Shown in pieces: positions 54,239 through 54,373 of a DNA stretch of 64,000 nucleotides. Positions within the stretch are counted from its first letter, which is position 1. Each line of letters opens with the position of its first letter. The stretch is from a plasmid. The stretch is from the NCBI RefSeq assembly GCF_054482525.1, contig NZ_JBTHVG010000007.1; one strand, given 5' to 3'. The notes below the pieces were generated by a model. It was given only the letters and a program-made list of their open reading frames with translations, was not told where the DNA came from and ran no database searches. A program made the translations under genes and the position numbers.

Positions 54239-54280
54239 AATCAAACAGCTCCTACACAGTAAAATAATAACAATTATGTC

Positions 54281-54299
54281 AATAATGATTCTCATTATC
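54281..54299. promoter_or_regulatory. Fur box of the aerobactin promoter
   Basis: aataatgattctcattatc, reverse complement GATAATGAGAATCATTATT, the classical iucA operator; between divergent iucA and shiF. Confidence 0.9.
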
Positions 54300-54373
54300 A
54301 ATGAGAAATGTTATTGTCAGAAAAATTAATTTTACAAATAAACACAATTAATACATGGTGTTGAAACATTACA

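Follow-up and report, generated by a model that had tools for sequence, protein, structure and literature searches.

The Fur-binding site of the aerobactin operon served as the founding example for Fur repression and acts as the switch of a major virulence siderophore of extraintestinal pathogenic Escherichia coli (ExPEC), avian pathogenic E. coli (APEC), and hypervirulent Klebsiella. Here, we analyze this site in a stretch of plasmid DNA of 64,000 nucleotides (NCBI RefSeq assembly GCF_054482525.1, contig NZ_JBTHVG010000007.1), which, at its full length, we call the window. Specifically, we examine the 135-bp spacer (54239-54373) that separates iucA, on the minus strand, from the divergent gene shiF, on the plus strand. 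We assign a probability of roughly 0.9 to the reading that the region is the classical Fur-controlled aerobactin promoter-operator of a ColV-type F plasmid and that it also controls shiF. The Fur box, the iucA start, and the co-repression of shiF are all already known from the literature, and their confirmation here validates annotation only: the 574-aa IucA, the 397-aa ShiF, and the ColV-type context. The addition made by this analysis is that the divergent gene pair, its indel-free 135-bp spacing, and the position of the box are maintained across genera.

The aerobactin promoter-operator of ColV-K30 (de Lorenzo et al. 1987; Escolar et al. 2000) shares with the window the operon, the plasmid type, and the 19-mer of the Fur box, and the HinfI site of the classical protection assay falls inside that box. 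The identical motif and the ColV context together suggest base-by-base identity. Plasmid pS88 (pECOS88; NC_011747.1) carries the same aerobactin-sit module flanked by IS1 and differs only in the surrounding backbone, which is rearranged; positions 52514-55567 of the window are 100% identical to pS88 over 3054 bp. In uropathogenic E. coli (UPEC) CFT073, c3627/c3628 are the same gene pair across a 135-bp spacer, with an identical box and identical hexamers of the iucA promoter, P1. The CFT073 spacer differs at 6 of its 135 positions (54240, 54253, 54303, 54322, 54359, and 54372), none of which lies in the box or in the P1 hexamers. Unlike the locus in the window, the CFT073 locus is chromosomal and resides in a pathogenicity island, and its downstream neighbors differ. 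SHI-2 of Shigella flexneri, where shiF was first described, is likewise chromosomal and is selC-associated. Finally, the enterobactin pairs fepA-fes, fepB-entC, and fepDGC-entS are described in PMC2189734 as footprinted bidirectional regions, where divergent genes are co-repressed by Fur in a short shared spacer. The fepB-entC spacer has, by the same account, two separately protected regions, whereas iucA-shiF has one strong conserved box.

Both flanking genes are readily recognized. The iucA gene (52514..54238, minus strand; RefSeq WP_000602863.1) encodes an aerobactin synthase of 574 aa that carries the Pfam domains IucA_IucC and FhuF and matches the solved Klebsiella pneumoniae IucA structure 5JM7 with an E-value of 0, residues 1-573 being covered. 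Together with the colinearity of the region with the annotated iucABCD-iutA of pS88 (99.9% identity), these domains place the gene in an aerobactin locus. The shiF gene (54374..55567, plus strand; RefSeq WP_000095526.1) encodes a transporter of 397 aa that scores 66 bits for Pfam MFS_1 (cut-off 33.4), the signature of the major facilitator superfamily. According to the listing of open reading frames (ORFs) and the RefSeq annotation of identical plasmids, the two genes lie 135 bp apart, a divergent arrangement of the fepA-fes type. The spacer between them has a G+C content of 23.7%, versus 51.3% across the window.

We searched the window for the Fur consensus GATAATGATAATCATTATC, a 19-bp inverted repeat, allowing at most 3 mismatches. 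The sole match in 64 kb is GATAATGAGAATCATTATT at 54281..54299, where 0.03 matches are expected by chance. Read on the minus strand, this core box agrees with the consensus at 17 of 19 positions (2 mismatches; 3 on the plus strand), and it encloses a HinfI site, GANTC, at 54287. A weight matrix built from 12 ChIP-seq motif sites of other CFT073 genes (PMC7157518 Table S5B) gives the box 23.6 bits, the top score of the window. The runner-up is GTAAATAATTATCATTAGC at 61094-61112, which precedes the sitA start (61019, minus strand) by 75-93 bp; sitA being a known Fur target, this is the expected Fur box of sitABCD, and its 22.4 bits are partly circular, as the CFT073 sitA site belonged to the training set. 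The original prediction, made from the sequence alone, of a canonical aerobactin Fur box in this spacer is thus borne out by both searches. The same prediction had placed shiF about 75 bp beyond the box, and the distance from the box edge (54299) to the shiF ATG (54374) is indeed 74 bp.

The arrangement extends well beyond E. coli. A scan for IucA with one genome per species yielded 16 loci, of which 15 could be used; besides three E. coli-like contigs, they represent Citrobacter, Salmonella enterica subsp. arizonae and diarizonae, Cedecea, Enterobacter, and Pantoea. In every one of the 15 fetched loci, shiF is the divergent neighbor across a spacer of exactly 135 bp, in which the best Fur box begins 61 bp ahead of the iucA ATG. 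We aligned 15 spacer sequences: 12 from fetched loci (five further genera), two from Klebsiella plasmids, and those of CFT073 and the window. The alignment is gap-free, and the Klebsiella plasmids fit it equally without gaps. The AT-rich control region (54239..54373) is thus indel-free in all 15 sequences, each of which holds a core Fur box of 13.9-23.6 bits at the same position. The spacer is not more conserved than coding DNA: compared with the window, its identity is 66-78%, and that of the first 600 nt of iucA and shiF is 66-86%. Rather, its conservation falls into blocks, namely the iucA start region, the region of the -10 and the second Fur site, the box with its shiF-side flank, and 54326-54340.

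Additional Fur-like sites adjoin the core box. On the iucA side, overlapping secondary sites span 54260..54293 (54260-78, 10.2 bits; 54263-81, 7.0; 54275-93, 9.8). Their offsets from the core box are multiples of 3 or 6 bp, and they match the second Fur-binding site, the one over the iucA -10. Comparison of the 15 sequences with the matrix shows that these sites are strong in the E. coli lineage only; the other genera have instead a weaker Fur-like site displaced 6 bp toward shiF. A separate Fur operator near shiF was considered and is not supported: the best site there, 54337-55, scores only 4.4 bits, and its mean across genera is -1.6. The matrix scan of the 15 spacers detected no second Fur site that is consistently strong, and one conserved operator is, by this sequence comparison, the predicted feature common to them all.

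Published expression and binding data connect this operator to both genes. In pS88, iron-depleted broth, serum, and urine are reported to raise the expression of iucA (16- to 45-fold) and of shiF (7.7- to 14-fold); the authors write that shiF "shares the same Fur Box" (PMC3438092). The authors' follow-up study (PMC6918656) says so again, its conclusion being that aerobactin secretion is boosted by ShiF. In CFT073, Fur ChIP-seq gives a single peak credited to both genes, with summits 341 (iucA) and 331 (shiF), shiF is listed in the direct Fur regulon, and Table S5B assigns the identical 19-mer motif to both genes (PMC7157518). Summit 341 (position 3469166) is 28 bp from the center of the identical box. 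RNA ratios from the same CFT073 study are 119 for iucA and 32 for shiF in the fur mutant relative to wild type, 1 and 1 in the ryhB mutant, and 104 and 32 in the fur ryhB double mutant.

These data also bear on the idea that shiF responds to iron indirectly, via RyhB, stress responses, or antisense effects of iucA transcription, with the box mattering for iucA alone. Such a scheme would suit the pS88 results, which are expression ratios only, and the smaller derepression of shiF than of iucA in the fur mutant (32-fold versus 119-fold). Against it stand the Fur ChIP-seq peak over the spacer with the listing of shiF in the direct regulon, the shiF ratio of 1 in the ryhB mutant and of 32 even when fur and ryhB are both lost, and the fixation of the divergent pair and box geometry across seven genera. 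We consider an indirect response highly improbable. Control of both iucA and shiF by the shared Fur operator, by comparison, is very probable. Iron-independent expression of shiF would have spoken against the co-repression that was originally proposed; the published pS88 and CFT073 data instead report low-iron induction, direct Fur binding, and derepression in the fur mutant, and so support it.

The promoter of iucA lies under the box. A sigma-70 scan calls a P1-like promoter on the minus strand, with a -35 hexamer TTGATA (54296..54301), invariant in the 15-sequence alignment, and a -10 hexamer CATAAT (54273..54278), which elsewhere reads CAAAAT or CAGAAT, and CTAAAT in one Klebsiella plasmid. 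The hexamers match the consensus at 10 of 12 positions across a 17-bp spacer, and their position would put the transcription start near 54266. Given this in silico promoter call, the Fur box covers the P1 -35 and the promoter spacer, and the secondary sites cover the -10. The overlap agrees with a review (PMC3788343) that describes Fur sites over the -35 and -10 of aerobactin P1.

In the favored account, Fur occupies the 19-bp box at 54281-54299 plus the adjoining weaker sites on the iucA side when iron is present. Bound Fur covers the P1 -35, spacer, and -10, turning iucABCD-iutA off, and the same bound Fur also represses shiF. When iron is scarce, in this account, Fur leaves, and both units are transcribed outward from the 135-bp spacer. 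ShiF then modestly raises aerobactin secretion; deletion of shiF reportedly lowers that secretion by at least 30%.

The position of P1 also constrains where IucA begins. The longest iucA ORF starts at TTG 54301 and encodes 595 aa, its Met22 being ATG 54238, and it does contain the Fur operator, as was noted at the outset. That TTG starts at the first base of the P1 -35 hexamer, and it therefore lies upstream of any P1 transcript, so the 595-aa ORF could not be translated from P1 and is rejected. The ATG at 54238, by contrast, is preceded at 10 nt by a Shine-Dalgarno sequence, AGGAG (54249..54253, minus strand, by direct reading), is invariant in the 15 sequences from seven genera, and is the RefSeq start of iucA. 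Moreover, residues 1-573 of the IucA query align with residues 3-575 of the 5JM7 chain, in which residue 3 is the first native residue after a presumed two-residue tag. These observations uphold the claim that iucA encodes a 574-aa protein.

Initiation at some other in-frame codon upstream, whether TTG 54301 (595 aa), ATG 54295, or TTG 54244 (576 aa), is very unlikely. In most genera the frame is open for 25 codons upstream of the ATG, and a TTG stands two codons before it in 15 of 15 sequences, as such initiation would allow. However, TTG 54301 and ATG 54295 fall within the -35 hexamer and Fur box and precede the P1 start, a stop interrupts the frame 13 codons upstream in one Klebsiella plasmid, and TTG 54244 is just 4 nt from AGGAG. 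In addition, both RefSeq and the 5JM7 construct use ATG 54238.

How the box would repress shiF depends on the position of the shiF promoter, which decides whether both promoters are physically blocked by one and the same 19-bp box. This is a detail of mechanism and does not define a new kind of system. We scored pairs of -35 and -10 hexamers over the whole 15-sequence alignment, with column-shuffled alignments as the null. The best plus-strand candidate has a predicted -35, TTCTCA (54289..54294), inside the Fur box, a 17-bp spacer, and a predicted -10, TATTGT (54312..54317), which elsewhere reads TAGAAT, TAAAAT, TAATAT, or TAGGAT; in this -10, T54312, A54313, and T54317 are invariant. Its mean score is 7.3, versus 6.0 for the established iucA P1, and 1.7% of the column-shuffled alignments reach it (P = 0.017). 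We place the shiF promoter here tentatively, at close to even odds. If the placement is right, shiF transcription would start near 54324 and give a leader of about 50 nt, and the location of the -35 within the box would explain how both genes are repressed from one operator. One candidate was set aside: TTAATA/TACAAT (54348-54375), which alone on the plus strand was picked up by the standard scan, extends into the shiF ATG and does not occur in Klebsiella and other genera.

The candidate shiF -35 (54289-94) and the P1 -35 (54296-54301) lie on opposite strands with one base between them. The former is wholly inside the Fur box, and the latter overlaps it at 4 of 6 bases. One Fur dimer array would, in this arrangement, occlude both -35 hexamers. 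The hypothesis is that P1 and the shiF promoter form a strict back-to-back pair, that one Fur array switches both, that the 135-bp geometry is frozen across at least seven enterobacterial genera, and that 54326-54340 and the long Fur footprint serve shiF control, as an early transcribed region or a roadblock. Taken as a whole, this proposal is plausible but falls somewhat short of an even chance. If it is true, 54326-54340 and the "unusually long" footprint of about 100 bp would gain a role in shiF control, one that went unassigned when shiF was unknown.

Several points weigh against this arrangement. ChIP-seq resolution is too coarse to tell one site from two within 135 bp, and the literature that could be searched gave no mapped shiF transcription start. 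In the E. coli lineage, the candidate promoter agrees with the consensus at only 8 of 12 positions and is missed by the standard scan. The Fur box itself constrains the candidate -35, and the conservation of that hexamer is therefore not independent evidence. Finally, with an alternative -35, TTTACA (54331-36), the shiF promoter would stand 30-60 bp away from the core box, and Fur would have to spread.

That last possibility can be set out in full: the shiF promoter would lie close to its own start codon, for example with TTTACA at 54331-36 as its -35, and its repression would come from Fur extending over the AT-rich stretch upstream of P1 and not from the core box. TTTACA does fall in the most conserved block of the spacer. 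A Fur footprint of 103 bp (M10930 291-393), compared with core sites at 347-393, is attributed to Escolar 2000 by Chen et al. 2007 (PMC2189734). We infer that the extra 56 bp extend toward shiF because the secondary site sits over the -10, and they would reach approximately 54357 if M10930 runs in the iucA sense. A Shine-Dalgarno sequence at a usable distance from the shiF start is found in none of the genera compared, which fits a very short leader. Yet the partner -10 (CATGGT, TATGGA, or TACGGG) lacks the conserved final T, the mean score of 2.9 is within the shuffle null, and Fur matrix scores on the shiF side are weak and unconserved (4.4 bits in the window, mean -1.6). We regard a start-proximal shiF promoter as rather unlikely.

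The near-invariant block TTAATTTTACAAATA at 54326..54340, in which 10 of the 11 positions at 54330-54340 are invariant across seven genera, can be read in several ways. Read toward iucA, it contains TAAAAT, which may serve as the -10 of a minor promoter further upstream; read toward shiF, it may supply the -35-like TTTACA or lie in the early shiF leader. It may also be part of the extended Fur footprint. A second iucA promoter with TAAAAT (54334-29) as its -10 was tried and rejected, no acceptable -35 having been found. A minor upstream promoter, P2, was reportedly described by Bindereif and Neilands in 1985.

The shiF start itself is well defined in the window. No in-frame start other than ATG 54374 is available, since a stop lies four codons before it. 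The other genera start shiF with GTG, TTG, or ATG one codon earlier, and the start position is thus conserved to within one codon. We note that Klebsiella plasmids carry a GTG at the shiF start position conserved in all other genera and that RefSeq starts Klebsiella shiF (L002 3589, L004 3589) seven codons downstream, at an ATG found only in Klebsiella. The later start is probably a mere annotation choice, and annotation is inconsistent between lineages.

A few further observations concern the spacer and its relatives. In most genera other than E. coli, a perfect 12-bp palindrome, TAACAATTGTTA, flanks the Fur box on the shiF side (alignment columns 101-112 = 54302-54313); the E. coli lineage has TAACATTTCTCA at 54302-54313, without the palindrome. 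The palindrome might be bound by another regulator or belong to a shifted Fur site. A structured RNA in the spacer or shiF leader was considered and dropped, the fold z-score being +0.81 with no Rfam match there. An ORF of 142 aa (54298-54726, minus strand), antisense to the 5' end of shiF, begins in the spacer; it is without support and probably spurious. The three E. coli-like contigs (L007, L008, and L021) carry an E. coli-type iucA-shiF (95% IucA identity, identical Fur box) in metagenome-assembled genomes named "Bacillota bacterium" and "Collinsella sp."; they are almost certainly mis-binned enterobacterial or plasmid DNA.

The locus is widespread, and its surroundings are those of a ColV-type plasmid. 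The 1.1 kb around the spacer recur at 99% identity or more in 779 plasmid records and 880 E. coli RefSeq records. At 99.9% identity, positions 45838-62090 are colinear with the aerobactin-sit module that IS1 flanks in pS88; outside these positions, the window consists of DNA for F-type transfer and maintenance, with FinP, the traJ leader, and sok. Specifically, Rfam matches to FinP with the traJ 5' UTR, sok, AS-traI, and AS-traG (32710-32821, 38768-38944, 4195-4271, and 13536-13621) confirm an F-type conjugative backbone with a hok/sok module. As in pS88, two IS1 copies (45070-45839 and 61316-62087) bracket iutA-iucDCBA-shiF-crcB, an enolase fragment, a Tn3 remnant, and sitDCBA, and the bracketed module resembles a composite transposon. 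Within it, the iucD ORF encodes 425 aa (48550-49827). RefSeq flags the identical pS88 sequence (7512-8845; window 48494-49827) as a "frameshifted" pseudogene. Because strain S88 is reported to make aerobactin (PMC6918656), this call is probably an annotation artifact of a short C-terminal variant.
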